A stretch of DNA of 56,781 bases from an uncultured Deferribacteraceae bacterium (GTDB lineage: Bacteria; Chrysiogenota; Deferribacteres; CAMZNJ01), in contig CAMZNJ010000024.1 of assembly GCA_947313825.1 (NCBI GenBank), positions 1-56,781 of the forward strand, read 5' to 3'. Both the position numbers and the translations under genes were made by a program. Shown piece by piece: positions 1 to 56,649 of this stretch (within the stretch, counting starts at the first letter, position 1; every line of letters starts with the position of its first letter). The notes below the pieces were generated by a model. That model ran no database searches. It had not been told where the DNA came from and was given only the letters and a program-made list of their open reading frames with translations.

Positions 1-669
1 CTAGCAGGACCACTGCAAACTAGCCTCGACCAAATGGACTCTATCCTACGCATGGTCGAACTCTCAGCACTACGCGACCCCTCCGAAACAGCAGCACACG
101 CACAACGCGTTGGAGCATACTCCTCCGAAATATTCGAACACTACGCTAGGGTCAACGGTGTCGCACACAACAAAATAAACTTCATCAAAGATAAAATTCG
201 CGTCTCAGCAATGCTTCACGACATAGGCAAAGTAGGGGTTGCTGACGCCATCCTAAAGAAAAAAGGACCTCTCACCGAAAGCGAAAGAACAGCAATGAGA
301 AAACACTCGGTCAAAGGTGCAAAAATATTCGACAAACCGCGTAACTCACTGGAAAGCATCGCCAAAGAGATAGCACTACACCACCACCAACAGTGGGACG
401 GAAGCGGTTACCCAATAGTGCAACTCCCCTCAGGGGGCAACAGACCTCTGAAAGGAGAAGAAATACCCATATCAGCACGAATTGTCGCCATTGCCGACGT
501 GTTCGACGCACTCGTAACAAAACGATCCTACAAAGAGGCAATCCCCGTGGAGGAAGCAGTGAAAATAATCAACGACTCCTCAGGAACACACTTCGACCCC
601 GATGTTGTAGCATCGTTTAACGCAGTCCTCCCCATCCTACAACTAATCGGGCACCGCTACCCATCGTAG
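1..669 (+). CDS. HD-GYP domain c-di-GMP phosphodiesterase (probably 5'-truncated by the window edge)
   Basis: Motifs HDIGK, HHQQWDGSGYP, ARIVAIADVFDAL and GTHFDP. The frame is open from base 1 through the ATG at 34. Confidence 0.9.
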   Translation, partial: LAGPLQTSLDQMDSILRMVELSALRDPSETAAHAQRVGAYSSEIFEHYARVNGVAHNKINFIKDKIRVSAMLHDIGKVGVADAILKKKGPLTESERTAMRKHSVKGAKIFDKPRNSLESIAKEIALHHHQQWDGSGYPIVQLPSGGNRPLKGEEIPISARIVAIADVFDALVTKRSYKEAIPVEEAVKIINDSSGTHFDPDVVASFNAVLPILQLIGHRYPS

Positions 670-838
670 GCGTGTGGCTGTGTAGTCGTGTGGCTGTGTA
701 GTCGTGTGGCTGTGTAGGCGTGTGGCTGTGTAGGCGTGTGGCTGTGTGGTCGTGTGGCTGTGTAGGCGTGTGGCTGTGTAGTCGTGTGGCTGTGTAGGCG
801 TGTGGCTGTGTAGTCGTGTGGCTGTGTGGCTGTGTGGC
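667..838 (+). repeat. Tandem array of 10 x 16 bp TAG(G/T)CGTGTGGCTGTG plus a partial unit
   Basis: Read directly. The first unit begins with the TAG stop of the HD-GYP gene. Confidence 0.97.
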
Positions 839-856
839 ACCGTCCATTATTTACTA

Positions 857-885
857 TGGACTATCCTTGCCCGATGGTGTATACT
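857..885 (+). promoter_or_regulatory. Putative sigma70 promoter
   Basis: TGGACT-17 bp-TATACT, about 155 bp upstream of the yggT-like ATG. Confidence 0.55.
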
Positions 886-1040
886 TGTAAGTGATTAACC
901 CTAAACATATCAAACAAGGTGTTTGCGTAAGGTGCCTGTGCCTATTCACACAGGGGCAACTCGACCACTAAGCCCCTTACGGCGACTGCAAATCCATTTT
1001 TGCAGACTAATTTTGCGGATTGATTAGGGCAGGAGGATAC

Positions 1041-1868
1041 ATGTTCGATTCCATGGTAGTTGAGTCCAGCTCAAAGCTTTTTCTTTTGCTACTCACATAC
1101 GCGTTTTATATTTTTAGTGTACTGCTTCTTCTTCGTAGCGTTATTACTCGCCAAGAGCTCAACTTCAACACTGTAGGGCGTTTAATCGCCTCCCTAACCT
1201 CCAAATACATACCTGAACGCCTTTCGACGCTCCAAGTGCAAATGCTTTTAGGATTAGTGTCAGTTGCTTACGTTGTTGGTGGTATGTTTCTCGCTCGGGA
1301 TTTCAGCCTTGCACAGTCGGTTCCATTTATTGTCCGTGTTCTAAACTTCTACATGGTAGTGGTGTTTGTGTCCCTGATTATCCTGTCCAATCCTCAGAGC
1401 ACCAACGCTAGCATGCTTGTAACCTTATTTCGTCGTGTTGGTCAGCAGTTGTGCAATACTGTTTCGCCGGTAATCCCAATACGTTCGAAGATGCTTTATG
1501 CTTTCGTTGGTTTGCTATTTTTGGGGATTTATTTGTCGGTAATCTTTGCTATCCTTATTTTCGAGTCTCTTACACGTGGCATCTCTTTTGATATTGTGCG
1601 AATGTTATCTGTGGGGTTTAGCTTTACAATAGCTGGTGTTATGTCGTTTTTGAGTTTTTATGCCATGCTTCTGTTTTTCAGGGTTTTGCTTTCATGGTTT
1701 TCACCCGATCCTCGCAACAATTTTTATATACTTTTGTATTATTCAACGGAATCGTATTTGGGTTTTTTCAGGCGTTTAATCCCTTCGGTTGGGATGTTTG
1801 ATTTGTCGCCCATTGCTGCTTTAGTTTCGATTTATGTGATACGCAATATATTAATTTTGTTTTTGTAG
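1041..1868 (+). CDS. YggT-family membrane protein
   Basis: C-terminal RVLLSWFSPDPRN...FRRLIPSVGMFDLSPI YggT signature and multiple TM segments. AGGAGG at 1031-1036 precedes ATG 1041. Confidence 0.8.
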   Translation: MFDSMVVESSSKLFLLLLTYAFYIFSVLLLLRSVITRQELNFNTVGRLIASLTSKYIPERLSTLQVQMLLGLVSVAYVVGGMFLARDFSLAQSVPFIVRVLNFYMVVVFVSLIILSNPQSTNASMLVTLFRRVGQQLCNTVSPVIPIRSKMLYAFVGLLFLGIYLSVIFAILIFESLTRGISFDIVRMLSVGFSFTIAGVMSFLSFYAMLLFFRVLLSWFSPDPRNNFYILLYYSTESYLGFFRRLIPSVGMFDLSPIAALVSIYVIRNILILFL

Positions 1869-2965: not shown

Positions 2966-3028
2966 GCAACAACAGCCTGCTCAGCTCGGAAAATGCTCCC
3001 CGTATGCATGTTGCCCCAACGGGATTAG

Positions 3029-3108
3029 TGGCTGTGTGGCTGTGATGACTGTGTTGCTATGTTGCTGTGATGACTGTGTGGCTGTGATGACTGTGTTGGC
3101 TGTGTTGC
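3029..3108 (+). repeat. Degenerate 8-9 bp tandem array (TGGCTGTG / ATGACTGTG / TTGCTGTG)
   Basis: About 9 units upstream of trpS. It shares the TGGCTGTG octamer with the 667-838 array. Confidence 0.85.
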
Positions 3109-3154
3109 GGTAATGGTTCGGGGTGTACTGATCGAATAAGCAAAAGGGTGGTTT

Positions 3155-4157: not shown

Positions 4158-4197
4158 CAAGCGTAATGGGCACAAGCGTAATGGGCACAAGCGTAAT
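4158..4197 (+). repeat. Tandem array of about 2.7 x 15 bp CAAGCGTAATGGGCA
   Basis: Read directly, 13 bp after the trpS stop. Confidence 0.9.
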
Positions 4198-4230: not shown

Positions 4231-5151
4231 ATGGCAAACCACAAACCTGACTCCAAGTCAAAAAACCTTACGTCGTCGGGGTTGAGGCTCAACAAATACA
4301 TTGCAACACATTACGGGTGCAGTCGACGCGATGCCGATAAACTTATCGATGCCAAACGTGTTAAGATAAATGGACGTGTGGCTGTGCTAGGTGATACCCA
4401 ACAGGCTGGGGACGTTGTGTCTGTTGACGATGCCCCCGTTTATGAACAGAAAGAATACACCTACATCAAATTTTACAAACCCAAAGGGATGCTCTCAACA
4501 TACGCGTCAAACACTGTGGACACCGAAGGGAAAGCAACACTCATGGATATACCCCAGTTCGCCAAAAACAAACTCCCCTATGCCGGTCGACTAGATTACG
4601 ATAGCGAAGGGTTGATGATACTTAGCAACAACCGTGAGCTAGTGAGTAGCCTCTCCCATCCGTCGTCTCGCTCTAGCAAGGTTTACCGCGTATGGGCATC
4701 GCGTAGCCTGACTCCCAGTGAGCTCCATGACCTCGAGTCGGGCATCGCCTACAAGGGGATTCAGTACGCACCTTGCCATATTCACGCCATCGGCTCCAAT
4801 AAATACAGCGTAACCCTTTACGAGGGCAAAAATCGCCAAATTCGTAACATGTTTAGGTTCATGGATATTCATGTTCGTCGCCTTGTTCGCGTTAGCGTCG
4901 CCTCTGTTCGTTTGGATGGCATGAAGGCAGGTGAGTTTCGTGTACTGACTGCTCAGGAGGTTGCTTCTTTGGCGTCGCGTTCTTCGGGGCAGGGCACTCG
5001 TTCTTCGGGGCAGGGCACTCGTTCTTCGGGGCATAGCTCCTCGGGGCAGGGCACTCGTTCTTCGGGGCAGGGCACTCGTTCTTCGGGGCATAGCTCTTCG
5101 GGGCATAGCTCCTCGGGGCAGGTCTCTTCGGGTGGGCGAAATAAGCACTAG
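4231..5151 (+). CDS. rRNA pseudouridine synthase (RluB/RluF/RsuA family) with S4 domain and repeat-derived C-terminal tail
   Basis: RLNKYIA...SRRDAD S4 motif, KPKG, GRLDYDSEGL and EGKNRQIRNM. Confidence 0.92.
   Translation: MANHKPDSKSKNLTSSGLRLNKYIATHYGCSRRDADKLIDAKRVKINGRVAVLGDTQQAGDVVSVDDAPVYEQKEYTYIKFYKPKGMLSTYASNTVDTEGKATLMDIPQFAKNKLPYAGRLDYDSEGLMILSNNRELVSSLSHPSSRSSKVYRVWASRSLTPSELHDLESGIAYKGIQYAPCHIHAIGSNKYSVTLYEGKNRQIRNMFRFMDIHVRRLVRVSVASVRLDGMKAGEFRVLTAQEVASLASRSSGQGTRSSGQGTRSSGHSSSGQGTRSSGQGTRSSGHSSSGHSSSGQVSSGGRNKH
4978..5133 (+). repeat. In-frame 21/15 bp tandem array encoding SSGQGTR / SSGHS
   Basis: Units TCTTCGGGGCAGGGCACTCGT and TCTTCGGGGCATAGC in the order 21,21,15,21,21,15,15,15. 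Confidence 0.95.
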
Positions 5152-11649: not shown

Positions 11650-11651
11650 GG

Positions 11652-11788: not shown

Positions 11789-14700
11789 ATGAGTATTCAA
11801 GAAAAGGGGGAAACATCCTCCACGGTGCAACATGAAACCACAACAACCACTAAGGGAACCACTCCCGAGGGAATCATTCCCGAGGGAATCATTCCCGAAG
11901 GAACCACAAACGCACCCACACCACCACGCAAACCACTTTGGCGTCGAATTTTATCAATAATTACAAAGGTGTTCGTCGCCTTTGTCGTGCTGGGTATTGT
12001 TGGAGTTCTCTCTTTTGCCGCACTAATCTACTACCTAAACAAGCAGTTGCCCTCCAACGCCGAACTTCACAATTATACCTACAATACCCCCTCGGTTATT
12101 TACGACAGAAACGGCGAACAAATAGGGTTACTCGGCACATTCAAACGCGAACCGGTGCCCCTTGAAGCAATAAATACTTGCCTGATTAACGCCACCATTG
12201 CCATTGAAGACGAACGGTTTTACGAACACCAAGGGTTTGACCTACGTGCAATCTTGCGTGCGGCGAAGGCTGATATTGCCGCAAGAAGCGTGGTGGAAGG
12301 TGCCTCTACACTTGACCAACAGGTTGCACGAAACCTATTCCTTACCCGTGATCAAACAATTATCCGCAAACTCAAAGAGGTGATTATCGCCTATCGGATG
12401 GGGAAAGTGCTCTCCAAAGATGAAATAATAACCCTCTACCTCAATGTTGTACCCTATGGGCGTGGGGCTTACGGGATACAGGCCGCAGCCGAAAACTATT
12501 ACGGCAAGGATAACACAGAACTAACAATCTCAGAATGTGCAACCATTGCAGGACTACCGCAAGCACCATCCTACATCGCACCACACCTTAGTATTGAACG
12601 TGCCACTGCAAGGCGAAACCGTGTACTAACACGCATGTTTGAAGACGACTACATTACCGAAAACGAATACAGTGAAGCGATAACAACAGAAATCACCATT
12701 ATCGACAAAGTAGAACCACGACGCAAGTACGCCAACTACTTTGTGGACTACGTAATAACTGAACTCAAGCGTGTAGCAAATATTACTGACTACTTAGACA
12801 ACGGCTACACCATTCACACAACGCTAAGCCTAAACCTACAAGAGAAAGCCGAAAACGCTGTTGAGCTAAACCTCATCGATCTAGCAAAACGCCAAGGATT
12901 CACTGGCGAACTAAGCCGATTCTCATACGAAGAGGCTACGCAAGAGGTACGCAACAAACTCGAAGAGATAGCACGAAATAACGCTGAAGAGGGCGGAGAA
13001 GCTCAGACCGATACCGATACCACCGATACCACCAATACCACCAGCACCACTGCACTAGACGTGGACGCCATGGCTCTAACGGACAAAAAACAGTTCAACA
13101 CGGCTATTGATGCAGGGCAACTCCCAACAGCAGAACTCTACACAGATACCTACAAACAAACTGTGCACAACCTCTATTACGAACAACTCACAGACGTGCC
13201 AAGCTACTTAACAAAAAGAGGGGCGGAAAAAGCACTCGTCATATCCCTAAACAGAACATTTGCAAGGGTGCTCCCACTAAACAACACAACAGTAAACCTA
13301 CTCGTAAACCCAAATATCAACCGTGGCGACAAAATACGCGTACTACGTGGTAACTCCATGCTCATACCCATCAGCTCCACAAGGTGGGCAGCAAATAGTA
13401 GCGACAAAATTGCAGGAAGAGCCTTTAGCGTTAGCTCCATGCTCCGAGTACTCGAAACAAAGGACATCATCTACATCACGCCAACAAACAAACTCTACAA
13501 TCCGCAAGACAACAACAGTGAATACTTAGCATACCTATTCCAAGAACCAACCGCCGAAGGTGCAATGCTGAGCGTAAACAAAAACAACGAAATCGTCGCA
13601 ATGGTGGGGGGCTTCAACTACTACAAATCCGTCTACAATCGGGCATACCAATCTTACCGACAAATGGGAAGTGCCTTCAAACCCATCGTTTACGCAACAG
13701 CAATCGAAAATGGATACGCTTTCGCAGACTATGTGGACGACATACCCATCATCAAAGAGGGACAAAACAACACCACATGGAAACCAAGTAACTACAACGA
13801 AATATTCTACGGCACAACAACATTTGCCGAAGGGCTAGCAAAATCAAGAAACACAGTAACAATACTGCTGGCAGAAAAACTAGGACTCGAACGGATACTA
13901 AATATGACCAAACGGTTCCACTTCTCCTCAGAAATGCCAAACGACCTAACAGTAAGCATCGGTGCCGGATCAGCCTCTGTTATGGAGGTGGCATCGTCGT
14001 TCAACGTCTTCAACAACCTAGGAATATACCAAGAACCTGTAGCTATTTTAGATGTGTGGAACTCGGACGGAGTGCTCGTATATTCGGCTAGTGGCAACTA
14101 TGACAATACCACGAACGGCGACGACGAACTGCTCGCCACCGATACTGCCACGAACGGCGACGACGAACTGCTCGCCACCGATACTGCCACCATCGCCGAC
14201 GACGAACTGCTCGCCACCGATACTGCCACGAACGGCGACGACGAACTGCTCGCCACCGATACTGCCACCATCACCGACGACGAACTGCTCGCCACCGATA
14301 CTGCCACGAACACCGACGACGAACTGCTCGCCACCGATACTGCCACCATCGCCGACGACGATCAGCCCATGTTCAGCGACCCGAATCGAATTCTCGGCGA
14401 ATCAGAGGCGTATGAAGTTCTTACAGTTTTGGAGGATGTGGTCAATAAGGGTACAGCAATCGCGCTGAGGTCGGTGGGACGTCCGTTGGCGGCAAAAACC
14501 GGCACGACGAACGATTACCGTGATGCTTGGTTTGTGGGCATGTTTCCCAACCTACTAACAGTTGCGTGGGTGGGGTTCGACAACTTCACAACTCTGGGGA
14601 ATGCTGAGTACGGTGTACGTGCCGCGTTACCTGCTTGGCGACGCTACACTAGCGATATTCTGGACGAACTGCCTTACGCACTGTTCCCGCTACCAACGAA

Positions 14701-14833: not shown

Positions 14834-14837
14834 TCGG

Positions 14838-14911
14838 GCGGTCAGGCGATGCAACGCGGTCAGTCGATGTAACGCGGTCAGCTTAGGTGTGTGTTGCGGG
14901 TGTGTTGCGGG
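14838..14911. repeat. Two short arrays (2.4 x 18 bp GCGGTCAG(G/T)CGATG(C/T)AAC; 2 x 11 bp TGTGTTGCGGG) filling a convergent gap
   Basis: Read directly between the stops at 14833 and 14917. Confidence 0.9.
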
Positions 14912-14916
14912 TATTA

Positions 14917-16026
14917 CTAGTCCTCTTCACGCCGAGACAGGGTTAGTATTCGATCTTCTATCCCTTTGCAGATGTAGTAGTTGAGCTTCCTTTTGAACGC
15001 TTCGTACCTTGGTGAGTGGTGGAATAAGTAGAGTTGGCTGGCTGAGCTATTCAGGAATATTTCCTTGGCAATATTGATTGTTAGGTGTTTCTTAATATGT
15101 GCCTGCTCTTTGTCCTCCTCCATGAATACCCCTTCCATAACGAGAATATTACTGTTTTTGGCGAATAGTGTTGCCTTGTGTATATTTTCCTGTGTGGGTG
15201 CGAGGTCGGTTGCGAAGGTTACGCTTTCGGACGGTGTTTCCTCTAGCATATGGAATAGGTTTTTAGCGGGCATACTGTTTTCGTCATGTTTGCCTGTGTT
15301 GCCTGTGTTGTCTGAGTTGTCCGTATCGCTAATGTAGTCGGGGGCAATGTCCACTTCAGGGTTGTTGTCAAGGTAGGCTTCTTTGAGTTGTCGCACCCAT
15401 TTCCCCCCTCTTAGTCCGCGTTCCATCATCTTTGTTTCGGATATATTTACTCGTCGTGGCGATTCTACACGGTATCCTATTGATGGTATTCCGTGGTCGA
15501 AAATTTCGTATGTTAGCGTAAATCCATTGTTGAGAGTGAATACGGTTTTGTTGTTGGTATTTTTGAGAACGCAGTTGCATTGGATTGGTTGCGGTTGAAA
15601 CTGTTTGTTTGCGGGTAGCAGGGCAGATTTTTGAACGCCAGTGTTGCTGAGTTCGTGTATCTCTATTTCGAAGGTGTAGCTGTCCACTAGGTTCCAAGTG
15701 TATGACTGTGTTCGGTAGAATACGTTATCGATAATGCCTTGTGGTCCAAAAATGATTAGTTTTTTGGATGAGATTAGCATGCTTCTTATTATTCGGTCGA
15801 ATCCGTAGAAGTGATCCATGTGTGTGTGGCTGATGCAGAGGTGTGTTACGTTGTTGATTTGGTTGTTGTTGTAGTAAGATATGTTGCCGCAATCCATCAT
15901 AATGGATCCCAGTAGGTGTGTGTGTTTGATGATAAACGAGATATCGCCGAAAGGGCTTGCACCGAATATTTTGTATGAATGTTGAGTCATGTTGTTGTTT
16001 GTACCGTTGGTTGTATTTGTTTCCAT
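14917..16026 (-). CDS. RNase Z-like metallo-beta-lactamase-fold hydrolase (start uncertain: 16026 or 15990)
   Basis: DCG, SHTHMDHFYG (HxHxDH), DHGIPSIGY, TD, EG.F, HLT and FHHSPRY motifs. Confidence 0.8.
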   Translation of the reverse strand: METNTTNGTNNNMTQHSYKIFGASPFGDISFIIKHTHLLGSIMMDCGNISYYNNNQINNVTHLCISHTHMDHFYGFDRIIRSMLISSKKLIIFGPQGIIDNVFYRTQSYTWNLVDSYTFEIEIHELSNTGVQKSALLPANKQFQPQPIQCNCVLKNTNNKTVFTLNNGFTLTYEIFDHGIPSIGYRVESPRRVNISETKMMERGLRGGKWVRQLKEAYLDNNPEVDIAPDYISDTDNSDNTGNTGKHDENSMPAKNLFHMLEETPSESVTFATDLAPTQENIHKATLFAKNSNILVMEGVFMEEDKEQAHIKKHLTINIAKEIFLNSSASQLYLFHHSPRYEAFKRKLNYYICKGIEDRILTLSRREED

Positions 16027-17611: not shown

Positions 17612-17621
17612 TGTTCTCCCT

Positions 17622-17675
17622 TGTTAGCGTGCAGTGTGTTAGCGTGCAGTGTGTTAGCGTGCAGTGTGTTAGCGT
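17622..17675. repeat. 3.6 x 15 bp array TGTTAGCGTGCAGTG
   Basis: Fills the gap between the nfo stop and the RBS of the next gene. Confidence 0.95.
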
Positions 17676-17681
17676 TGGAGC

Positions 17682-18506
17682 TTAGTTCCTGTATGATTTG
17701 AGTTTGTTGAGTTCAAGTTTGTAGTTCTCTTCAACAGGGGTTTCGAGTATGCCTAAGATGTTGTTGAAGCGGGAGTCGTTGACTAGTTGCACGAAGGTGT
17801 TTTTGCCGATAAAGCCATCGCCAATGAGTTCGTGTCGATCGCGTCGGCTCCCTAGCTCTTTTTTGCTATCGTTTAGGTGTATGACTTTTATTTTGTTGCC
17901 AAAAGTTGAGAAAAAGTTTGTGAAAACATTTTCGTAGTTATCTTTTATATCATATCCGGCGGCGAACATATGGCAAGTGTCGAGGCAAACTCCTATTTTG
18001 TCGCCATGTTTGCATTTGTCGATAATGGCGGCGAGGTGTTCGATTGTGTGTCCGATGGATGAGCCTTGTCCTGCAGTGGTTTCCAGCAGTATCATTGCGT
18101 TGTAGTCGCCTTGGTCGTATACGTGGTCAAGGTTGGCGGCTATGGAGGCGATACCGGCGTCATCGCCGTGCCCCATATGTGCCCCAGGGTGCATAACATT
18201 GTACGGAATGCCGAGGGTATCGCAACGACTGAGTTCGTCGTTGAGGCAAGTGATGGATTTCTCAACGTTTTCAGGTTTGTCTGATGCGAGGTTGACCAAA
18301 AATGTGGAGTGAGCAGTTAGGTTGCTGAATCCAAACTTCTCGGCGGATGAGCGAAATTTTGAGATATTTTCATCACTTAAGGGCTTGGATGCCCACCGGT
18401 TGGAGCTCTTAACAAATACCTGCAGGGATTCGCAACCGTCATGGGCGGCTAAGGGGAAGCTTTTTTCCACACCACCAGAAATAGATTCGTGGGCACCTAG
18501 TATCAT
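17682..18506 (-). CDS. nfo: Endonuclease IV
   Basis: GAHES, HPG, LETTAGQG, CLDTCH, HLNDSK, DRHE and ILETP. Confidence 0.96.
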   Translation of the reverse strand: MILGAHESISGGVEKSFPLAAHDGCESLQVFVKSSNRWASKPLSDENISKFRSSAEKFGFSNLTAHSTFLVNLASDKPENVEKSITCLNDELSRCDTLGIPYNVMHPGAHMGHGDDAGIASIAANLDHVYDQGDYNAMILLETTAGQGSSIGHTIEHLAAIIDKCKHGDKIGVCLDTCHMFAAGYDIKDNYENVFTNFFSTFGNKIKVIHLNDSKKELGSRRDRHELIGDGFIGKNTFVQLVNDSRFNNILGILETPVEENYKLELNKLKSYRN

Positions 18507-20456: not shown

Positions 20457-20625
20457 TGCACGAAAGCTGCACAAAAGCTACCCGAAAGTTTCACGAAAGT
20501 TGCACGGAAGCTACCCGAAAGTTGCACGAAAGCACTGCACGAAAGTTGCACGGAAGCTACCCGAAAGTTGCACGGAAGCTACCCGAAAGTTGCACGAAAG
20601 CACTGCACGGAAGCACTGCACGGAA
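20457..20625. repeat. About 15 units of 11/13 bp (TGCACG(A/G)AAG(C/T), TACCCGAAAGT, TGCACGAAAGCAC)
   Basis: Read directly. A higher-order pattern of variants is visible. Confidence 0.95.
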
Positions 20626-20722: not shown

Positions 20723-20755
20723 GCAGTACCCGGTGGGCAGTACCCGGTGGGCAGT
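20723..20755. repeat. 2.4 x 14 bp GCAGTACCCGGTGG
   Basis: Ends 3 bp from the ftsZ stop. Confidence 0.9.
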
Positions 20756-20758
20756 GCC

Positions 20759-21910
20759 CTATCGGTTACCTATTTTACGATCGCTGTTGCGAAGGATTGC
20801 AGGTATTTCGTAGTCGCTCTCTTGAGACGTAATATTTTCAATGCTAGGGAGGTTCTCCTTAGTAATAGTGCGAGGAGCATTAGGCTGAGCCTCAGTGCCA
20901 CGAACTTTCCCTGTAATATCGATCATTTTACTGGAATCTTTGGGAGCGTCGGAAAGCCCTGTGGATACGATGGTTACCTTAAGCTTACCATTTAGGGATT
21001 CGTCGATGCCTGTTCCCATGATAATCAGGGCATCATGTCCAACAATGTCGTGTATGGCTTTGGCAATATCGTCAACTTCGTGCATGGTCATATCCTGCCC
21101 ACCGGCGATATACAAGAGGAGTCCGCAAGCACCACGAATATCGATATCGCAAAGTAGGGGGGAGCTAAGTGCTGCCCGCACAGCTTTGTCGGCACGGTTA
21201 TCACCTTCGCCGGTGCCAATGCCCATGAGAGCCATACCTTTGCTGCCCATGATGGTTTTGACATCGTTGAAGTCAACGTTCATGAGTCCGCTGTTGTTGA
21301 TGCTATCGCTGACACCTTGGACACCCTGACCAAGAACATCATCGGCAAGTGCTAATGCTTCGCCGAAAGTTGTCTCTTTTGAAATAACAGGGATAATTCT
21401 GTCGTTAGGAACAACAATATAGCTGTCAACACGATCTTTCAAAAACTTGAGCCCTTCGCTGGCAAAAGCTTTACGACGCCCACCTTCCCAAGAGAAAGGC
21501 ATGGTAACAACGGCAACAGTGAGGGCACCGATATCTTTGGCAACGCTAGCAACAATAGGTGCAGCACCGGTACCAGTTCCTCCGCCAAGCCCACAGGTGA
21601 TAAACACAAGGTCGGAGCCTTCGAGGGCTTCTTCAATTTGGTCGATGGCTTCAAGGGCAGCCTTGCGACCAACCTCAGGGTTACCGCCCGCACCAAGCCC
21701 TTTGGTGAGTTGCGATCCCAAGTGTATCTTTGTCGGACAGTTGCTCTTGGAGAGAGCCTGAGCGTCAGTGTTTGCGGCAATGAAGTCCACATTCCTGATA
21801 CCCTTCTGTATCATGTTGTTGATGGCGTTGCCACCACCTCCGCCAACACCGACAACTCTAATTACGGCATTTTTTGCCACTTCTTCGAAAACAAAATAAT
21901 CGTTATTCAT
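20759..21910 (-). CDS. ftsZ: Cell division GTPase FtsZ
   Basis: GVGGGGGNA, GGGTGTG, NVDFND and C-terminal EIPAILR. Confidence 0.98.
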   Translation of the reverse strand: MNNDYFVFEEVAKNAVIRVVGVGGGGGNAINNMIQKGIRNVDFIAANTDAQALSKSNCPTKIHLGSQLTKGLGAGGNPEVGRKAALEAIDQIEEALEGSDLVFITCGLGGGTGTGAAPIVASVAKDIGALTVAVVTMPFSWEGGRRKAFASEGLKFLKDRVDSYIVVPNDRIIPVISKETTFGEALALADDVLGQGVQGVSDSINNSGLMNVDFNDVKTIMGSKGMALMGIGTGEGDNRADKAVRAALSSPLLCDIDIRGACGLLLYIAGGQDMTMHEVDDIAKAIHDIVGHDALIIMGTGIDESLNGKLKVTIVSTGLSDAPKDSSKMIDITGKVRGTEAQPNAPRTITKENLPSIENITSQESDYEIPAILRNSDRKIGNR

Positions 21911-29126: not shown

Positions 29127-29182
29127 ACAACAAATAACTCAACAAGTCACATCATAATTTCGCAATAGGCGAGAAAGGGGGC

Positions 29183-29238
29183 TGGTGCGGTGGCGTGGTG
29201 GTGCGGTGGTGCGGTGGTGCGGTGGCGTGGTGGTGTGG
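29183..29238. repeat. 7 x 8 bp G-rich array TGG(T/C)G(C/T)GG upstream of ftsW
   Basis: Read directly. Confidence 0.9.
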
Positions 29239-29600
29239 TGGTTGTCGTCGGGTGGTTGTCGGGGCATAGTCGTGAAAAAAAGGAATATGGGCGAATAAGA
29301 AAATATCTGTTGCATAACAGGGAGTTTTGCTGTAGTATTTTAATTCGGTATTCTACTTGTCGATTTTTGTCAATATTTGTCAATTGTATCGAAACTGTAG
29401 TGGGCAATTTTAAACGGTAGCAGGCTGTTTAACTACAACCGAACTACTACTGTCGAACTAGTTGAATTGACGCAAGGGTAGGAAAAACTGCCATTTACTT
29501 ACACTTGAAACAGGGTGCCCGGCATGGACTAATGCGGGTTCACACCATACTAATCAAACATAAAATACGTACACCGTTGAAGTGTATTGGAGAAATTATT

Positions 29601-29792
29601 ATGTCGAAACGTTGCGAAGTTTGCGGTAAAGGACCCATGTTCGGAAGAAATATTAGTCATGCTCATAATGTTACTCGCAGGGTTTTTTACCCGAACGTAC
29701 AAGCTGTACGCGTGTACAACGATGCAAGACAGATTGTAAAGGCAAAGGTATGCACCAAATGCCTGAAGGCCGGTAAGGTCAGAAGAGCCTAG
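29601..29792 (+). CDS. rpmB: 50S ribosomal protein L28
   Basis: MSKRCEVCGKGPMFGRNISHAHNVTRRVFYPN...CTKCLK, with GGAG before ATG 29601. Confidence 0.97.
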   Translation: MSKRCEVCGKGPMFGRNISHAHNVTRRVFYPNVQAVRVYNDARQIVKAKVCTKCLKAGKVRRA

Positions 29793-29909
29793 AGCCCGCC
29801 AATCGGATAGCACAAACTGATACGACAACACCCGTTGTCCATACGAACCCTTTGATGCAGAGGGAGTGTGCATGGATGACGGGACTTTGTGCGTCTGGCG
29901 TGGGGTTCG
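29793..29909 (+). ncRNA. Candidate structured RNA (long irregular hairpin) immediately after rpmB; family not recognised
   Basis: Nested pairings: CGCCA/TGGCG, GCACAAA(29810-16)/TTTGTGC(29886-92), CCCGTTGTCCAT(29831-42)/ATGGATGACGGG(29872-83) and CCCTTTG/CAGAGGG, including G-U pairs. Confidence 0.4.
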
Positions 29910-29915
29910 GTGTGT

Positions 29916-30144
29916 GCACACACCTGCACGCACGCACACGCTCGCCACGCACGCACACGCTCGCCATGCACGCACGCACACGCTCGCCATGCACGCACGC
30001 ACACGCTCGCCATGCACGCACGCACACGCTCGCCATGCACGCACACGCTCGCCATGCACGCACGCACACGCTCGCCATGCTCGCACGCACACACCTGCCA
30101 CGCACGCACACACCTGCCACGCACGCACACACCTGCACGCACGC
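29916..30144. repeat. About 230 bp CA/GC-rich array, main unit 23 bp GCACGCACGCACACGCTCGCCAT with 18-20 bp variants
   Basis: Read directly. Confidence 0.96.
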
Positions 30145-30222
30145 TGGAAAATATTACGCAAAATAAAACTTCTTTCAAAATAGTAAACATTATGATACTA
30201 TTTATGCCAAAGAGGTGAATTT

Positions 30223-30804
30223 ATGAGCATACCAAAAAAACAGTTTTATCATGGTGCTATTCTACTGGAAATATTAGAAAATGCTGACGACCAAATTAGC
30301 CTAATCTCAAAACAACAGGACGACGAGAAAAAAAGATCTTACGCAGAAAAATACTGCATTCGAACCAAAAATACCGTCGAAGAGGGCGTCAATGTACTAA
30401 TACAAGTTAGGGATAACGCCAGAAAAAATGCGGGCGAAACACCCGTATGGGATTTTCGAAACGTGGAATATATTGAAGGGTATGTATATATTTTTATGTG
30501 CGGCAATGAAACCACAAAGGGAAAATATATCCCTAAGGCGTGTCTCATTACCCCCGAAAACATAGAAGTGGTTATGGATGACCAGAAAGACAAAAATGGC
30601 GAAACATTTCACATAACCATATCCATGAACCCCGGTAGCCAAGGAAGTTTCAAGATTAGGACACCGAATCGCAACAAAAAAGAGCTATTCAAAGTGAAGC
30701 AGAAAGACTTTAAAGAATTCTTCAAAACGCCGTATCTTTTTGGGGCTGATAGTGCGACACGCGTGAACCATGCTCAGCACTCAGCGACACCGCGACACGC
30801 GTGA
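30223..30804 (+). CDS. Hypothetical protein (AT-rich orphan)
   Basis: 193 aa ORF with AGAGGTG RBS at 30211-30217. No family recognised with confidence. The last ~16 codons and the stop come from the adjacent repeat. Confidence 0.7.
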   Translation: MSIPKKQFYHGAILLEILENADDQISLISKQQDDEKKRSYAEKYCIRTKNTVEEGVNVLIQVRDNARKNAGETPVWDFRNVEYIEGYVYIFMCGNETTKGKYIPKACLITPENIEVVMDDQKDKNGETFHITISMNPGSQGSFKIRTPNRNKKELFKVKQKDFKEFFKTPYLFGADSATRVNHAQHSATPRHA

Positions 30805-30999
30805 GCACCGCGACCCGCGTGAGCCGTGCTCAGCACTCAGCAACACCGCGACCCGCGTGAACCGTGCTCAGCACTCAGCAACACCGCGAACTGCGTGAAC
30901 CGTGCTCAGCACTCAGCAACACCGCGACACGCGTGAGCACCGCGACCCGCGTGAACCGTGCTCAGCACTCAGCAACACCGCGACCCGCGTGAACCGTGC
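30754..30999. repeat. Composite array: 5 x 38 bp GCGACCCGCGTGAACCGTGCTCAGCACTCAGCAACACC, 2 x 18 bp GCGACACGCGTGAGCACC and a partial unit
   Basis: Order 38,18,38,38,38,18,38,20. Ends 3 bp from the cysS stop. Confidence 0.96.
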
Positions 31000-31002: not shown

Positions 31003-32442
31003 CTACGACTCGCGTACCTTGCTCACAAAATAATGGGTGCCACTAGCAGTATCCATAAGCATTATCCCCATTTGTGCAAGGGTATCACGTATCTCATCCG
31101 ATGTTGCGAAATCCTTACTCTCACGAGCAGCGTTGCGGCGAGAAATATAGTCCTGCAATTCCGACTCACTAATAGGCATAATCTGATGGAAAAACTCCAC
31201 AGGTGCCATGGTGAGGACACCCAAAATAGACGAAACCGTAGCAACAACAGAAGCATTAGACTCCTGCAATAACACGAGAGTTGCAGCGTTTATCTTACTG
31301 TTCAAAATACTGTTGCACCCGTTGGTGTAGGTGAATAAAGCAGCAAGAGCCAAAGGCGTATTGAAATCGTCATCCATGGCAGAGGTAAAGCTACTTGCAA
31401 AGTCGGAGTAGAGACGCTCAACTTCCGACCGAGCATCCACACCCTTTGTGCCAGCTGTGGCAGTATTAGTTTCAGCAAGGTAGTTGTAGAGTCGTGTGAG
31501 GGATCGCTCCGACTCAAGTACTAAGTCGACGGAATAGTTGAGACTGCTTCGGTAGTGTGTTTTGGCGAAAAATAGGCGGATAACTTCGGGATGGAACTGC
31601 TCAAGCATTGCATCCACAGTGATGAAGTTATTCAATGATTTGCTCATTTTAACACCATCCACGGTTAGCAAACCGTTATGCATCCAGTAAGCTGCGAGGG
31701 GGCTCTCGCCTAACGATTCGGATTGTGCGATTTCGTTTTCGTGGTGGGGAAAAACCAGATCAAGTCCGCCGCCATGTATGTCGATGGAGCCTCCCAGTTC
31801 GCTACGTATCATGGCTGAGCATTCAATATGCCAGCCTGGGCGACCGTCGCCCCATGTTGTTTCCCATGAGGGTTCCCCCGCTTTGGCACCCTTCCACAGG
31901 GCAAAGTCGAGTTCCGATTCTTTACGTTCTTTGGCAGCGTCGCCCTCCCCAGAAGTAATGTCGTCGAGGTTGCGGTTGCTGAGTTTGCCGTACTGTGCAA
32001 ATTTATTGACACGAAAGTAGACGTCGCCTTGGGAGGCGTATGCAACCCCTTTGTTTATGAGCTCTTCGATGAACGTAATAATATTGCCGATGTGCTCTGT
32101 TGCCCTTGGAGCGACTGTTGGTGGCATAACATTGAGTTGTTTTGCGAATTCTTGGTGTTTCTTGATGTATCTTTCAGAGATATTTTGGAAGCTTGTGTTT
32201 TCGGATATTGCTTTGTGTATTATTTTGTCGTCGATGTCGGTGTAGTTTTTGGCGAATGAGACGTTGTAGCCGAGGTGCAGGAGGTATTTGCGTATGATGT
32301 CGAATGCGATATCGCTTCGGGCATGTCCGATATGGGACGTGTTGTAAGTGGTGATGCCACAGACATACATTTTGACAGTATTGGGTTCCATTGTTTTGAA
32401 GTTTTCTTTGCTTCGGGATAAGGTATTGTAAATTTTTAACAT
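31003..32442 (-). CDS. cysS: Cysteine--tRNA ligase
   Basis: MYVCGIT, HIGH, GRPGWHIECSAM, HGGGLDLVFPHHENE and KMSKS. Confidence 0.98.
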   Translation of the reverse strand: MLKIYNTLSRSKENFKTMEPNTVKMYVCGITTYNTSHIGHARSDIAFDIIRKYLLHLGYNVSFAKNYTDIDDKIIHKAISENTSFQNISERYIKKHQEFAKQLNVMPPTVAPRATEHIGNIITFIEELINKGVAYASQGDVYFRVNKFAQYGKLSNRNLDDITSGEGDAAKERKESELDFALWKGAKAGEPSWETTWGDGRPGWHIECSAMIRSELGGSIDIHGGGLDLVFPHHENEIAQSESLGESPLAAYWMHNGLLTVDGVKMSKSLNNFITVDAMLEQFHPEVIRLFFAKTHYRSSLNYSVDLVLESERSLTRLYNYLAETNTATAGTKGVDARSEVERLYSDFASSFTSAMDDDFNTPLALAALFTYTNGCNSILNSKINAATLVLLQESNASVVATVSSILGVLTMAPVEFFHQIMPISESELQDYISRRNAARESKDFATSDEIRDTLAQMGIMLMDTASGTHYFVSKVRES

Positions 32443-32758: not shown

Positions 32759-33145
32759 CTACAGCTTTGCACCAGTATGACATGTAGCACAGTTTCTGCT
32801 GACCTTAACCTTCTTTACGTTATGGCATTCCCAGCAGAATTCGACGTGCAATTTGTTTTTAACACCATCTTGCACAACGGTGGAGATGTCGAGTGGTTGC
32901 CCTGTTTTTTGTGAAACAAGTACTTTTTTGGAGGCACCGACAACATGACATGTGGCACATTGGTTCTCCACTGCTTTAACGTGTGAGTCGTGGTCGAAGA
33001 TTGCTGATTTCTTTGAGAGCCCTGTAAATCCGAGGTGTTCGGCAACACTAATTTTTCCCTTTGGTGGTGCGTCCACAGCTAGTGCAATGGCTGCAAATGA
33101 AAGGGACAGTATTATTAAAAATCCAATAACTAGTTTAGCTCTCAT
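32759..33145 (-). CDS. Periplasmic triheme cytochrome c (c7/PpcA-like, cytochrome c3 superfamily)
   Basis: Signal peptide, FDHDSH distal His pair, CATCH, H..F-CWECH and CATCH. GAGGTG RBS before ATG 33145. Confidence 0.9.
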   Translation of the reverse strand: MRAKLVIGFLIILSLSFAAIALAVDAPPKGKISVAEHLGFTGLSKKSAIFDHDSHVKAVENQCATCHVVGASKKVLVSQKTGQPLDISTVVQDGVKNKLHVEFCWECHNVKKVKVSRNCATCHTGAKL

Positions 33146-33482
33146 AAGTGGCACCTCACTTTTCTGTATCTTTTTTGTTGCAAAGTAATACGATGATAAT
33201 CGATTTAATTGTTCTAATCAATCTATTTAATTAACAAAGCAGTACTTACCAAAGATTGTATCACAAGGAATATAAATCTGTAAAGAATTTATCGGAATTC
33301 TTGGCGAAAAATATTACTAAAAGATGCGGGTGCAACAAACTAGCCGTACGAGCAACAGGTCGATGCAGTCCACGGGAGCCCATGCAGTCCACGGGATGCA
33401 AGTGTAGTAAACTAGCCGTACGAGCAACAGCGACCAGAAAGTTGGTTGCTTTGACGCGGGGCAAGGGATAACGATAGGACTA

Positions 33483-33530: not shown

Positions 33531-33923
33531 CTAGGTTTTTGGACCAGTGTGGCATGTAGCACACTTTTTGCCAACGTTAACCTTCTCTACGTTGTGGCAT
33601 TCCCAGCAGAATTCAACGTGCATTTTGTTTTTAACACCATCCTGCACAATAGTTGAGATGTCGAGGGGTTTCCCTGTTTTTTGTGAGATGAGTACGCCTC
33701 TAGTAGGGGGGTTGTCCCCATGGCAAGTTGTGCAACTATGGTTTGCCCTGTCTTCTACGGGTATTTTACTGGAAGTGCCGTGTCCTCTGTGCGACCAGTA
33801 AACTCCCTTCTGCGTAGTGTTCTCAAGCTGTAGTCTCTCAGCAATACTGTCCTTAGCCATAGATACTGCCGAAAAAGACAGCACCAGAGTCAAAGACAGA
33901 CCGAAAATAAATAATTTTCTCAT
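33531..33923 (-). CDS. Periplasmic triheme cytochrome c, paralog of 32759-33145
   Basis: Signal peptide MRKLF..., WSHRGH, CTTCH, CWECH and CATCH. GGAGG RBS before ATG 33923. Confidence 0.9.
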   Translation of the reverse strand: MRKLFIFGLSLTLVLSFSAVSMAKDSIAERLQLENTTQKGVYWSHRGHGTSSKIPVEDRANHSCTTCHGDNPPTRGVLISQKTGKPLDISTIVQDGVKNKMHVEFCWECHNVEKVNVGKKCATCHTGPKT

Positions 33924-33949
33924 ATAAAGTCCTCCTATGTCCAAAATAG

Positions 33950-33987
33950 TAACTAATGTATTACTTATAACTAATGTATTACTTATA
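33950..33987. repeat. 2 x 18 bp TAACTAATGTATTACTTA
   Basis: Perfect tandem duplication upstream of the cytochrome RBS. Confidence 0.9.
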
Positions 33988-34114
33988 TGAGCAATTGTAG
34001 CACAACAATATGAAGTTGTAAAGAAATTTTTTTTCGAAAGGCTTGACGAAAAATACAATTAGAAGGTGCAGGTGCAACAAACTAGCGGTACGGGCAACGT
34101 GAAAATTAATTACC

Positions 34115-39885: not shown

Positions 39886-40128
39886 GCGTGGCAACACGGT
39901 TGCGTGCAACACGTTGGCGTGCAACCCGTTGCGTAATGCTGTTGTGCGGTTGCGGTAACACTTTGTCGTGCAAAAATAATGGAAGATAACACATAGGTCG
40001 AACGGTCGCACTCAACCACCTTCTCAAGGTAGTGGGTGCGATTTTTCGTGTTACGGAAAATACGTTGGCGTGCAACACGTCGCGGAAAACACGTTGGCGT
40101 GCAACCTATTGCGTAATGCTGTCGTGCG
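39886..40128. repeat. Two CAACACGTTGGCGTG-type mini-arrays, each ending in a 41-bp direct repeat (39908-39948 and 40088-40128)
   Basis: AACACGTTGGCGTGCAACC..TTGCGTAATGCTGT.GTGCG, 3 mismatches, 180 bp apart. Confidence 0.9.
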
Positions 40129-40130
40129 AA

Positions 40131-40982
40131 CTACTTGAGAAAGATGGAGTACTTCTTGAGCACAATATCAGGGTAGTAGGCACTTTTGGACTGCCTTAAA
40201 CCGGGGTCGCCTAAATCCTGCTGAAAGTTGATATATTTATGTGTGCCGACAATCGTTTCGGCAAACGACATGTTCATGGCTTGGTATACCCCTTTGTACC
40301 GGACATCCCCCTTTTGAAACAGCAGGTTGAATGTTTTGTTTGAGATTGTGCTGCCAAGGCAAAATCCGGATGGTTCGCCGTTGCTGTAGAACACGTACCC
40401 TTCGAGTCCGAGTTCCTCTTGTTGCATTATTCCGACTTTGGCTTGGTCGTAATCGGAGTACCCTTCACGTCCGCCGTCGAGTCGGTTGTTTGCCCAATTG
40501 TCGAGCACAGTGAGTGCATCGATTTGTATTGATCTTTCCATGGGTTTACGCTCTAGCGTGTAGAGGTTGTGGTATTGTTTGGCGAGGTTTCGTCTTTTGC
40601 TGAGTTTTCGTCCGGGCATTGTTGTTAGTTTTTCGGCTAGGTAGAGGTAGTCGAAGTCTTCCTCGAGTGCTTCTGTGGCGAATCTAGGGTCGTCGCCGAG
40701 GTGTGTCAGCCATTTTTCGTCCACGGGGTAGATGAACTTATATTTTTTGAGGATGGTTTCGATTTCGTCTAGTGAGAAGTGTGGCAGGTCGTTTGTGAGT
40801 AGTGCGTATGTGTTGTTGTCGTTGTCTGTGCTTGCGATGATGATGTTGTCGCCCATTCGGTCGATGGATTGTTTGTATCCGTGTTGGAAGATGAACGTGT
40901 TTGAGAATGAGAATTCGGATATGCAGGAGTCGATGGCTAGGAATAGTTTGTCAAGCTCTGTGCGTTGGTTGATTTCTATCAT
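40131..40982 (-). CDS. DUF2156 / aminoacyl-phosphatidylglycerol synthase C-terminal-like GNAT protein
   Basis: SEFSFSN, DYLY...L..MPGRKLSKRRN, KG...YKGVYQ and YINFQQDLGDPGLRQSKSAYYP. Confidence 0.85.
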   Translation of the reverse strand: MIEINQRTELDKLFLAIDSCISEFSFSNTFIFQHGYKQSIDRMGDNIIIASTDNDNNTYALLTNDLPHFSLDEIETILKKYKFIYPVDEKWLTHLGDDPRFATEALEEDFDYLYLAEKLTTMPGRKLSKRRNLAKQYHNLYTLERKPMERSIQIDALTVLDNWANNRLDGGREGYSDYDQAKVGIMQQEELGLEGYVFYSNGEPSGFCLGSTISNKTFNLLFQKGDVRYKGVYQAMNMSFAETIVGTHKYINFQQDLGDPGLRQSKSAYYPDIVLKKYSIFLK

Positions 40983-52991: not shown

Positions 52992-52998
52992 TGAGAGT

Positions 52999-55287: not shown

Positions 55288-55334
55288 CTGGAGCTCGATT
55301 GCTCTGCCTTTACAAGTGCGTAAGAGGGAACCGT

Positions 55335-56507
55335 ATGAATTACGTGATAAAAACAGACAAACTAGTACTTAGTGGCGGGGTTGTTGAAGGGTACATCTCT
55401 GTTCGCGATGGTCGAATTGCAGAGGTATCTCGCACACCCATTACCCTCGGGAATGGCGACAATGCTGTGGACTGCTCCGGTCTTTTTGTTGCACCCGGAA
55501 TGATGGACACGCATATTCACGGGCTCCATGGCTTTGACACTGCCAACAACAACGTTGACGACATACTAGGCATGTCCGATGCCCTCCTTCAGTACGGCGT
55601 AACATCGTTCTGCCCCACAATTTACACCAACCTTGAACCACTCTTTGTGGACGGTATTCGTGCCGCTGCCACTGCTCAGGGGAATGAAACCGGCTCGCGT
55701 ATTCACGGTATGCACTTGGAAGGACCATTCATATCGAAGTCGAAGGCTGGTGCACAACCACCTGACGCCATTCGTGAAACAGTGGACACAAGCCTGCTGG
55801 AAACCATCCACCGTTTTGCCAAGGGTAAGGTTTCCATTATGACTGCTGCTCCCGAAACCAACAATATCAGTGTATTGGTGGATTTCTGTAGGGGCGAGGG
55901 GATACGCCTGTCCGCAGGACACACTAACGCTACCCATGAAGAGATGTGTTGCGGTGCGGATATGGGGTTCTCGCGGGTTACCCACCTATTCAACGCCATG
56001 CCAAGTATTAATCACCGTGCCCCCGGTGCTGTCGTGGCTGCCCTCATGGATGATCGACTTTACTGCGAGCTAATTGCTGACGGCAAACATGTTAACAGGG
56101 CTGTTGCCGAGCTTGCTTTGCGGTGCAAACCTGCCGACAAAGTTATTCTTATCACGGACGCCTTATGTCCGACAGGTCTTACTGGTGGCAACCTGTTTGC
56201 TAATGGCAAGGCTGTGGAGATGCGTGATTCCCTTTGGCACCACGTTGAAGATGGCACCATTGCTGGCTCATCCTTGGATATGTTAACGGGCGTGAAAAAC
56301 CTGTCTCAGTGGGGCGTTGACATGCCAACAGCATTTCAGTACGCCTCCCAAAACCCTAACGCAAACCTTGGCGTTACAGATAGGGGGGCATTGGCTGTGG
56401 GTAATCATGCCGATATTATTGTTTTCGATGATAAGTTCGACCTCAAAGCAACAATAGTGGGCGGCGACCTCAAATATACGGGCAAAGGGTTCTCCCTCCC
56501 ATTGTAG
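55335..56507 (+). CDS. nagA: N-acetylglucosamine-6-phosphate deacetylase
   Basis: PGMMDTHIHG, HLEGPFI, GHTNA, THLFNAM, IADGKH, LITDA and IAGS. Confidence 0.96.
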   Translation: MNYVIKTDKLVLSGGVVEGYISVRDGRIAEVSRTPITLGNGDNAVDCSGLFVAPGMMDTHIHGLHGFDTANNNVDDILGMSDALLQYGVTSFCPTIYTNLEPLFVDGIRAAATAQGNETGSRIHGMHLEGPFISKSKAGAQPPDAIRETVDTSLLETIHRFAKGKVSIMTAAPETNNISVLVDFCRGEGIRLSAGHTNATHEEMCCGADMGFSRVTHLFNAMPSINHRAPGAVVAALMDDRLYCELIADGKHVNRAVAELALRCKPADKVILITDALCPTGLTGGNLFANGKAVEMRDSLWHHVEDGTIAGSSLDMLTGVKNLSQWGVDMPTAFQYASQNPNANLGVTDRGALAVGNHADIIVFDDKFDLKATIVGGDLKYTGKGFSLPL

Positions 56508-56525
56508 CAGGTTTTGATACTGCAC

Positions 56526-56649
56526 AAGCAGGCGGGCTAAGCAGGCGGGCTAAGCAGGCGGACTGAGCAGGCGGACTAAGCAGGCGGGCTAAGCAGGCGG
56601 GCTAAGCAGGCGGGCTGAGCAGGCGGGCTAAGCAGGCGGACTAAGCAGG
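56526..56649. repeat. 9.5 x 13 bp array (A/G)AGCAGGCGG(G/A)CT
   Basis: Read directly, 18 bp after the nagA stop. Confidence 0.97.

Follow-up and report, generated by a model that had tools for sequence, protein, structure and literature searches.

Why do short tandem repeats collect at the ends of genes in a compact bacterial genome? The question is raised by a 56,781-bp stretch of DNA from an uncultured Deferribacteraceae bacterium (GenBank assembly GCA_947313825.1, contig CAMZNJ010000024.1, positions 1–56,781 of the forward strand), to which we refer as a whole as the window. Between its genes lie arrays of head-to-tail repeats that often end within a few base pairs of a stop codon and can fill the junction between two convergent genes. 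The first-pass annotation, made from the letters of the window, proposed that such arrays either arise where transcription or translation ends or act as 3′ signals in termination, Rho loading, or RNA stability or as a protein roadblock. We find that the placement is a property of the whole genome and that both proposed explanations are unsupported. The arrays are most probably minisatellite-type variable-number tandem repeats (VNTRs), a by-product and not dedicated 3′ elements or a new class of 3′ signal. It is fairly likely that they arise genome-wide by slippage or recombination and survive where they disturb no promoter, ribosome-binding site, or reading frame.

Distribution and make-up of the arrays across the genome

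The window is contig C24 of a 1.256-Mb assembly in 66 contigs (G000; GC content 47%, completeness 86%). Arrays were called with Tandem Repeats Finder (TRF; score ≥50, period ≥6) and merged. Genes were called genome-wide with an ad hoc caller of our own that combines open reading frame (ORF) length, a periodic Markov score, and overlap rules. It returned 1004 genes (85% coding), for which the stops are exact and the starts, like all counts that depend on them, are approximate; the window gene at 1020–1868 was missed. Pairs of genes that are each at least 200 amino acids long and have good scores form a high-confidence set.

The 675 merged arrays occupy 4.7% of the 1.256 Mb, with 328 arrays in coding sequence, 325 between genes, and 22 straddling the two. 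Repeats account for 37.2% of the intergenic base pairs in convergent spacers, 14.7% in co-directional spacers, and 5.9% in divergent spacers, and at least 20 bp of repeats are found in 67 of 103, 155 of 720, and 25 of 115 of these spacers, respectively. The median distance from array edge to stop is 15 bp in convergent and 11 bp in co-directional spacers; the median distance to a start is 145 bp in divergent and 79.5 bp in co-directional spacers. Within co-directional spacers, the flank on the stop side is the shorter one in 114 of 149 cases (p = 6e-11), and 53 arrays hold a stop codon compared with 14 that hold a start codon. In the high-confidence set, arrays are present at 32/39 convergent junctions (67.7% of the base pairs), in 15/44 divergent spacers (5.5% of the base pairs), and in 86/379 co-directional spacers, where the stop-side flank is shorter in 69 of the 86. 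The genome-wide 3′ bias, for which the first-pass annotation had set a check against random placement, survives both normalization for spacer length and restriction to high-confidence pairs. It is real and statistically solid.

The 3′ bias grows with the copy number of the arrays. Arrays with fewer than 2.7 copies number 0.86, 0.68, and 0.62 per kb of non-repeat DNA in convergent, co-directional, and divergent spacers, respectively, a distribution that is near-even for two-copy arrays. In the same order, the densities are 1.54, 0.85, and 0.52 for arrays of 2.7–4.5 copies and 3.02, 0.97, and 0.26 for arrays of at least 4.5 copies. The stop-side flank in co-directional spacers is shorter for 17 of the 30 smallest arrays and for 47 of 58 big arrays; the flank fraction shows a trend only (Mann–Whitney p = 0.07).

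Arrays inside genes are filtered by reading frame. Of the 328 coding arrays, 316 (96%) have a period that is a multiple of 3, compared with 115 of the 325 intergenic arrays, which is the third expected by chance. Median periods are 15 bp for intergenic and 12 bp for coding arrays, and the periods spread over 7–19 bp and more. Coding and intergenic arrays otherwise share their make-up: the GC fraction of the units is 0.558 and 0.557, respectively (0.41 in non-repeat intergenic DNA), and purine-pyrimidine alternation is 0.605 and 0.627, compared with ∼0.485 after shuffling. Intergenic arrays are further enriched in CA/TG (odds 1.70) and AC/GT (odds 1.65), and the strand asymmetry of arrays (G+T versus A+C) is 0.376 compared with 0.20 for random segments. 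Because this make-up is shared with coding arrays, expansion-prone sequence explains it more easily than a role at gene ends.

The arrays do not belong to one dispersed repeat family, which is ruled out by the 437 of 631 arrays that have no similar array elsewhere; among intergenic arrays, 85 of 312 resemble another array, compared with 46 in a reversed-sequence decoy. Nor do the arrays stem from a plain loss of mismatch repair, since mutS and mutL are both present above cut-off. The orientation of the GT-rich strand correlates weakly with local GC skew (r = 0.19, n = 312). On the sense strand of genes genome-wide, A exceeds T (skew 0.12) and C exceeds G (skew 0.09), and it is because of this gene-strand composition bias that the GC and AT skews of the window flip with gene orientation.

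Arrays of the window and their variation among relatives

Pfam supports trpS, PBP1, an nfo-like apurinic/apyrimidinic endonuclease gene, ftsZ, ftsW, cysS, and iPGM, together with their strands, in the window. Scans with Rfam and ARAGORN found no RNA gene in the window, and no array adjoins a known RNA gene. The nearest genome compared is that of a sister species in the same genus (G001; 1.3 Mb, FtsZ identity 92%), whose contigs are collinear with the window at 85–89% identity. The remaining relatives compared share only the class and have genomes of 2–3 Mb. Metagenome-run contigs from one study (X1, X2, and X3) were also compared; X3 covers 6 of 30 bins, and its contigs belong to a more distant relative.

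The distances from arrays to stops given by the first-pass annotation were reproduced with TRF, the ORF list, and the sequence. The arrays of the window are listed here with the state of each site in the relatives.

666–838: 16-bp unit, 10.8 copies; the first unit holds the TAG stop (667–669) of the HD-domain gene 1–669. In G001 the unit is related but not the same, and a contig breaks here.
3028–3115: 17-, 25-, and 42-bp units in the co-directional spacer 2966–3154, 62 bp past the stop and 39 bp before the trpS start. Absent in G001, where the spacer is 127 bp long with 0 tandem repeats (189 bp in G000).
4158–4197: 15-bp unit, 2.7 copies, 13 bp past the trpS stop and 33 bp ahead of the next start. 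The array at this place in G001 has a period of 14 bp and a different unit.
14838–14881 (18-bp unit, 2.4 copies) and 14889–14912 (11-bp unit, 2.2 copies): abutting arrays that fill the 83-bp convergent junction 14834–14916, leaving gaps of 4 bp each to the stop that ends at 14833 and to the minus-strand stop 14917–14919. G001 contigs break here, and the X2 contig has a different sequence (loose end at 14917).
17622–17675: 15-bp unit, 3.6 copies, filling the 70-bp co-directional minus-strand spacer 17612–17681, 6 bp from the stop of the nfo-like gene (17682–17684) and also 10 bp from the start of the next gene (17611). G001 has an array of a diverged 14-bp unit, and X2 shows a unit variant.
20457–20625: compound array of 11, 22, 44, and 68 bp between the ftsZ stop and the start of a UDG-family gene. 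G001 has other units.
20723–20759: 14-bp unit, 2.6 copies, reaching the minus-strand ftsZ stop 20759–20761 (gap 0–3 bp).
29183–29242: 8/16-bp units in the divergent spacer 29127–30222, 56 bp from the ftsW start. G001 has a 9-bp unit in 14.6 copies.
29916–30144: 19-, 23-, and 65-bp units, AC-rich with alternating purines and pyrimidines, also in the spacer 29127–30222, with 78 bp between the array and the start at 30223. In G001 the units are different and a contig breaks here.
30754–30999: compound array of 38, 56, 94, and 132 bp; it holds the stop 30802–30804 of ORF 30223–30804 and lies 3 bp from the cysS stop 31003–31005.
39886–39973: left block of 15–20-bp units, beginning 0 bp past the iPGM stop.
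40050–40128: right block, which repeats part of the left block in direct orientation (86%) and ends 2 bp short of the minus-strand stop 40131–40133.
56526–56649: 13-bp unit, 9.5 copies, 18 bp past the stop at 56507; a TATAAT-like stretch comes next. In G001 the array is absent, with ∼20 bp of unique sequence in its place and the TATAAT-like stretch conserved.

Two of these arrays, 29183–29242 and 29916–30144, lie between divergent genes and are exceptions to the description of all arrays as lying at gene ends or convergent junctions. A second correction concerns 39886–40128. Its repeats do touch both convergent stops, at 0 and 2 bp, but they form two blocks around ∼76 bp of unique DNA and not one array. 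The first-pass annotation also saw no hairpin-plus-U terminator at three spaced convergent junctions, and for one of the three this was a mistake. Between the two repeat blocks, on the plus strand at 39999–40048, a unique hairpin is followed by a T run and preceded by an A run. The segment 39995–40055 folds at −24.4 kcal/mol (z = −3.95; 0 of 200 shuffles as good), with AUUUUU next. The hairpin is conserved in G001, and the repeats that flank it differ there. Judged by these sequence features, it looks like a shared terminator for the two convergent genes. Its plus-strand stem is bulged, and a simple hairpin-plus-T rule misses it even when applied to the whole region.

The arrays differ by whole units between samples. 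Compared with the window, X2 contigs lack one 14-bp unit at 20723, skip 123 bp at 20467–20591, and skip 190 bp at 29915–30106; inside genes, 9 bp at 13013 and 18 bp at 27115 are missing in X2. Between G000 and G001, 38 of the 42 gene junctions of the window could be compared. Spacers free of arrays are near-equal in length (83/78, 79/78, 137/139, 172/173, 117/117, 135/136, and 175/175 bp), and all large differences are arrays that are present in one species only or resized (216 versus 479, 140 versus 226, and 189 versus 127 bp). After 55287, G000 has a spacer of 11 bp according to the ORF list, or of 47 bp if measured to the likely ATG; in G001 the spacer is 228 bp long, and its 186-bp array runs exactly up to the conserved GAGGGAACCGT-ATG ribosome-binding site. 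Both species have arrays at 4158 and 17622, and the units there have diverged in concert.

Arrays also move the ends of proteins. ORF 30223–30804 stops inside its array in G000, whereas the G001 orthologue reads through its own array and overlaps the cysS stop by 44 bp. The C-terminal tail of the RluA-like gene 4231–5151 is encoded by a 21/57-bp array (4978–5132) in G000 and by unrelated 63/81-bp repeats in G001. The array-encoded tails of both genes are wholly different between the sister species.

Short-unit arrays make up 4.5% of 62 kb in G001. They account for 0 of 32.6 kb at eight same-class ftsZ loci and for 0–0.5% of 153 kb from six further same-class genomes, and thus look like a trait of the genus represented by G000 and G001. 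One member of the class (G004; 3 Mb, 51% GC) has tandem repeats over 4% of a further 40 kb. These have periods of 124–157 bp (locus L023, 10376–11121; locus L024, 4196–4657 and 10807–11102) and are a different kind of repeat.

Explanations for the placement at gene ends

In the reading that we favor, short GC-rich, CA/TG-rich stretches would duplicate head to tail across the genome, and the resulting arrays would grow and shrink by whole units through slipped-strand mispairing or unequal recombination. Selection would then purge those that disrupt reading frames, promoters, or ribosome-binding sites, the last two of which would keep the 40–100 bp before starts clear. Large arrays would remain only behind stops and between convergent genes because selection removes them elsewhere in a compact genome. 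If the free DNA had originally measured no more than about one unit, the expanded array would abut the boundary of that DNA, which would usually be a stop and sometimes a ribosome-binding site, a promoter, or a terminator hairpin. Arrays that began in the last codons of a gene would carry the stop in their unit, as at 666–838, or shift it, which would add to the anchored look. The distribution of the arrays, their variability, the frame filter, the lack of polarity and structure described below, and the rise of the bias with copy number are observed; slippage or recombination as the mechanism and selection, not the local rate of expansion, as the cause of the filter are our inference.

Part of the apparent anchoring is geometric. 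At convergent junctions, where the arrays had been described as anchored at both stops, both flanks are ≤10 bp in 16 of 67 cases, and a uniform split predicts 16.1. Junctions with one or both flanks ≤10 bp number 43 of 67, compared with 35.4 ± 2.6 expected. In co-directional spacers, the array lies ≤10 bp from the stop in 46 of 61 cases when the residual spacer is <100 bp, in 19 of 43 at 100–200 bp, and in 6 of 30 at 200–400 bp. Stop anchoring thus fades as spacer room grows, and some excess stays.

Several points weigh against survival under selection as the full account. Even with the 50 bp upstream of starts excluded, the first tenth of the free zone contains 40% of arrays, and 9 of 46 arrays in residual spacers of ≥200 bp still begin ≤10 bp from the stop; the anchoring exceeds what simple promoter avoidance predicts. 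The gradient from young to big arrays fits selection near promoters and faster expansion at 3′ ends alike, and the class of small arrays must include chance two-copy repeats that dilute any bias, which weakens the size test. With arrays at 82% of high-confidence convergent junctions, where they make up two thirds of the DNA, much tolerated junk has to be assumed for a reduced genome. The units also share a theme: GCAC occurs in 136 of 325 units compared with 56 expected and CGTGC in 54 compared with 13 expected, and such a theme among independent arrays could point to a sequence-specific binder. The gene calls are ad hoc, with one window gene missed and some starts misplaced. Finally, the census of arrays is incomplete and an underestimate, because the assembly, itself 86% complete, breaks at arrays.

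For signals acting through the transcript, the arrays lack the expected features. Their sequence has no polarity relative to transcription (47 GT-rich and 54 AC-rich arrays on the sense strand). There is no bias for C over G on the sense strand, where only 43% of 181 co-directional arrays have more C than G (mean skew 0.0). A Rho utilization (rut) region, which calls for C-rich, G-poor, unstructured RNA after the stop, does not match these two results. Array RNA folds no better than dinucleotide shuffles, with a median z of −0.83 for 120 arrays compared with −0.62 for 120 non-repeat intergenic controls. In addition, the presence of arrays varies between sister species, arrays occur in short operon-type spacers (17612–17681, and the junction at 55288 in G001), and a hairpin terminator stands between the blocks at 39886–40128. 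The proposal that the arrays are 3′ signals for termination, Rho loading, or RNA stability thus finds no support.

Intrinsic terminators do not account for the arrays either. Hairpin-plus-T sites in the three thirds of the window number 20 compared with 20.5 expected, 35 compared with 20.7 (middle third), and 18 compared with 17.4, and among the sites listed in the window scans none is at a gene end and none is in an array. Genome-wide, strong hairpin-plus-T sites (≤−14 kcal/mol) number 96 in sense orientation versus 53, and a weak hairpin criterion gives no sense enrichment (1.26 versus 1.37 per kb). Of the 96 strong sense sites, 83 lie outside arrays and only 12 are mostly inside them, and the hairpin at 39999–40048 is unique DNA. 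Nor do arrays simply replace hairpins: strong hairpins are found at 15 of 67 convergent junctions with an array and at 10 of 26 without one (odds ratio 0.46, p = 0.13), so that mutual exclusivity is not significant, and in co-directional spacers arrays and strong hairpins are positively associated (odds ratio 2.1, p = 0.03).

A mutational bias could produce the same placement if arrays were seeded or expanded faster at the ends of transcripts or at points of collision between transcription units; replication-transcription conflicts, local supercoiling, or non-B DNA formed by alternating purine-pyrimidine units could drive such a bias. Growth of the 3′ bias with copy number is also what a locally higher expansion rate would give, and alternating purine-pyrimidine runs of ≥6 do hold 24.4% of array bases compared with 9.5% after shuffling. 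The stop-proximal excess in long spacers (9/46) and the preponderance of arrays holding a stop over those holding a start point the same way. We nevertheless consider this explanation doubtful. Arrays with fewer than 2.7 copies are near-even across spacer types, and arrays are equally numerous inside genes (328), where only the reading frame filters them; the first-pass suggestion that arrays arise where transcription or translation ends is left unsupported by the same two results. Moreover, divergent arrays lie in mid-spacer, at a median of 145 bp from starts, as promoter avoidance predicts, and the frequency of convergent junctions with both flanks ≤10 bp fits a uniform split.

Selection could instead maintain the arrays as 3′ elements at the DNA level, either as spacing that allows Rho to stop transcription before the opposite convergent gene or as a protein roadblock to RNA polymerase. 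The genome encodes Rho (658 bits, above the family cut-off), and intrinsic terminators appear few: hairpin-plus-T sites are near chance in two thirds of the window, with none listed at a gene end, and only 96 strong sense sites are present genome-wide. Arrays at 32/39 high-confidence convergent junctions, the theme common to the units, the retention of an array by both G000 and G001 at the sites 4158 and 17622, and the smaller, nonsignificant share of strong hairpins at array junctions (15/67 versus 10/26) are also consistent with such a role. It is unlikely all the same, given that transcripts of the arrays show neither a C-rich, G-poor bias nor polarity nor extra structure, that coding arrays have the same composition, and that arrays occur in operon-type spacers, where termination would silence the next gene. 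Whether an array is present, and in how many copies, differs from one sister species to the other and from sample to sample, and at 39886–40130 a conserved hairpin terminator already stands between the blocks. A more specific version, a hairpin-free and strand-symmetric gene-end device built of putative tandem sites (GCCGTG/GTGCA theme, alternating purine-pyrimidine) for a DNA-binding protein or of non-B DNA, is distinctly improbable; it would insulate transcription units and stop polymerases between convergent genes, with copy number tuning its strength. That the arrays are artefacts of short-read metagenome assembly is hardly credible. Contigs do tend to break at arrays, which lie within 60 bp of 25 of the 132 contig ends of G000 (∼10.5 expected) and coincide with 3 contig breaks in G001 and with breaks of X1 contigs, and copy numbers may be misassembled. 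However, independent assemblies (G000, G001, X1, and X2) have arrays at the same sites, the changes are clean whole units, and the coding frame is kept.

Known repeat systems and consequences

The arrays have the defining features of VNTR or minisatellite loci, with which they share head-to-tail direct repeats of 7–60 bp, units specific to each locus, differences of whole units, and in-frame periods within genes. The units of ∼6–100 bp typical of that class, the whole-unit differences, and a local origin are all observed here; 437 of 631 arrays are singletons, and the array at 56526 replaces ∼20 bp of unique sequence. VNTR loci are used for typing by multilocus VNTR analysis. The arrays described here differ from such loci in being far denser, at 4.7% of 1.26 Mb and 32/39 convergent junctions, and in sharing a GC-rich, CA/TG-rich, strand-asymmetric make-up. 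We take this make-up to resemble that of eukaryotic minisatellites. Contingency repeats that mediate phase variation do not match the arrays, whose edges lie at medians of 80–145 bp from starts and whose coding members are in frame in 316 of 328 cases.

Several published systems resemble the arrays in placement and differ in kind. GGGNATC heptamers of Xanthomonas and Nostoc are over-represented between co-oriented ORFs and under-represented in coding and divergent DNA (Rehm et al. 2015, PMC4692102). They lie preferentially within 50 bp of the stop and vary in unit number (PMC4692102). The arrays share with them the enrichment behind stops, the scarcity between divergent genes, and the variable copies. 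In contrast to the heptamers, which are one 7-nt G-quadruplex-forming family that prefers four units, the arrays comprise hundreds of unrelated units, mostly of 7–25 bp, and have no preferred strand or copy number. With a period of 7 in only 15 of 325 intergenic arrays, they cannot be assigned to the G-quadruplex heptamers.

The repetitive extragenic palindromic (REP) sequences of Escherichia coli and the bacterial interspersed mosaic elements (BIMEs) they form part of are concentrated at gene 3′ ends, as the arrays are; many REPs lie ≤15–20 nt from the stop and are reported to stall ribosomes (PMC12306157), and in one study about half of E. coli REPs were within 15 nt of stops (as cited in PMC12306157). 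REPs are dispersed, follow a palindromic consensus, and form a stable hairpin, whereas the arrays are local direct repeats with no consensus that fold as shuffled sequence does. They show neither the palindromic hairpin (z −0.83 versus −0.62) nor the single dispersed consensus of REP/BIME elements.

Short tandem repeats also occupy convergent 3′ spacers in the plastid of Heterosigma akashiwo, where repeats of ∼18–20 bp in 1.9–7.5 copies, many of them between convergent 3′ ends, vary between strains and are placed non-randomly (PMC2410131). The repeats of the plastid are rich in AT, amount to ∼25 per genome, and occur together with hairpin repeats; the bacterial arrays are GC-rich and number hundreds. 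Mycobacterial interspersed repetitive units (MIRUs) have been described as mobile, with insertion at start codons and a small ORF that is coupled to the gene downstream (PMC12548453). Like the arrays, they are intergenic VNTR-type repeats in operon spacers that touch neighboring codons. The arrays avoid starts, and 210 of the 325 intergenic periods (65%) are not divisible by 3, which does not fit a small-ORF unit.

In the literature on tandem repeats at bacterial convergent junctions, we found no description of this pattern for this lineage. In the passages covered from the main text of genome papers on shrimp-gut Deferribacterota, the words repeat, tandem, and intergenic turn up solely in connection with CRISPR or in the reference lists. 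The pattern described here stands out by its scale and heterogeneity: the units are unrelated and number in the hundreds, the arrays take up ∼5% of a reduced genome, and they are found at four fifths of the well-supported convergent junctions.

If the arrays are indeed the survivors of selection, the genome is a natural map of insertion tolerance in a compact bacterial genome, in which growth is allowed behind stops and between convergent genes and the 40–100 bp before starts are protected. If they are functional, they would represent a hairpin-free type of terminator or insulator that bears on how transcription ends between convergent genes where intrinsic terminators are few. For annotation and binning they are a warning, as arrays break short-read assemblies, shift stops, and create species-specific C-terminal tails. 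They would also serve as very fine strain markers for this uncultured symbiont lineage.

Two further observations concern genes of the window. ORF 1020–1868 (282 amino acids) has a YGGT match in its last 70 residues only and a long N-terminal part without a Pfam match; the whole ORF is 92% identical in G001 and on that ground probably real. The neighboring minus-strand small genes 32759–33154 and 33531–34058 have no Pfam matches. They share a paralogous segment of ∼160 bp (32766–32923 and 33537–33695), over which each matches the G001 orthologue of the other.

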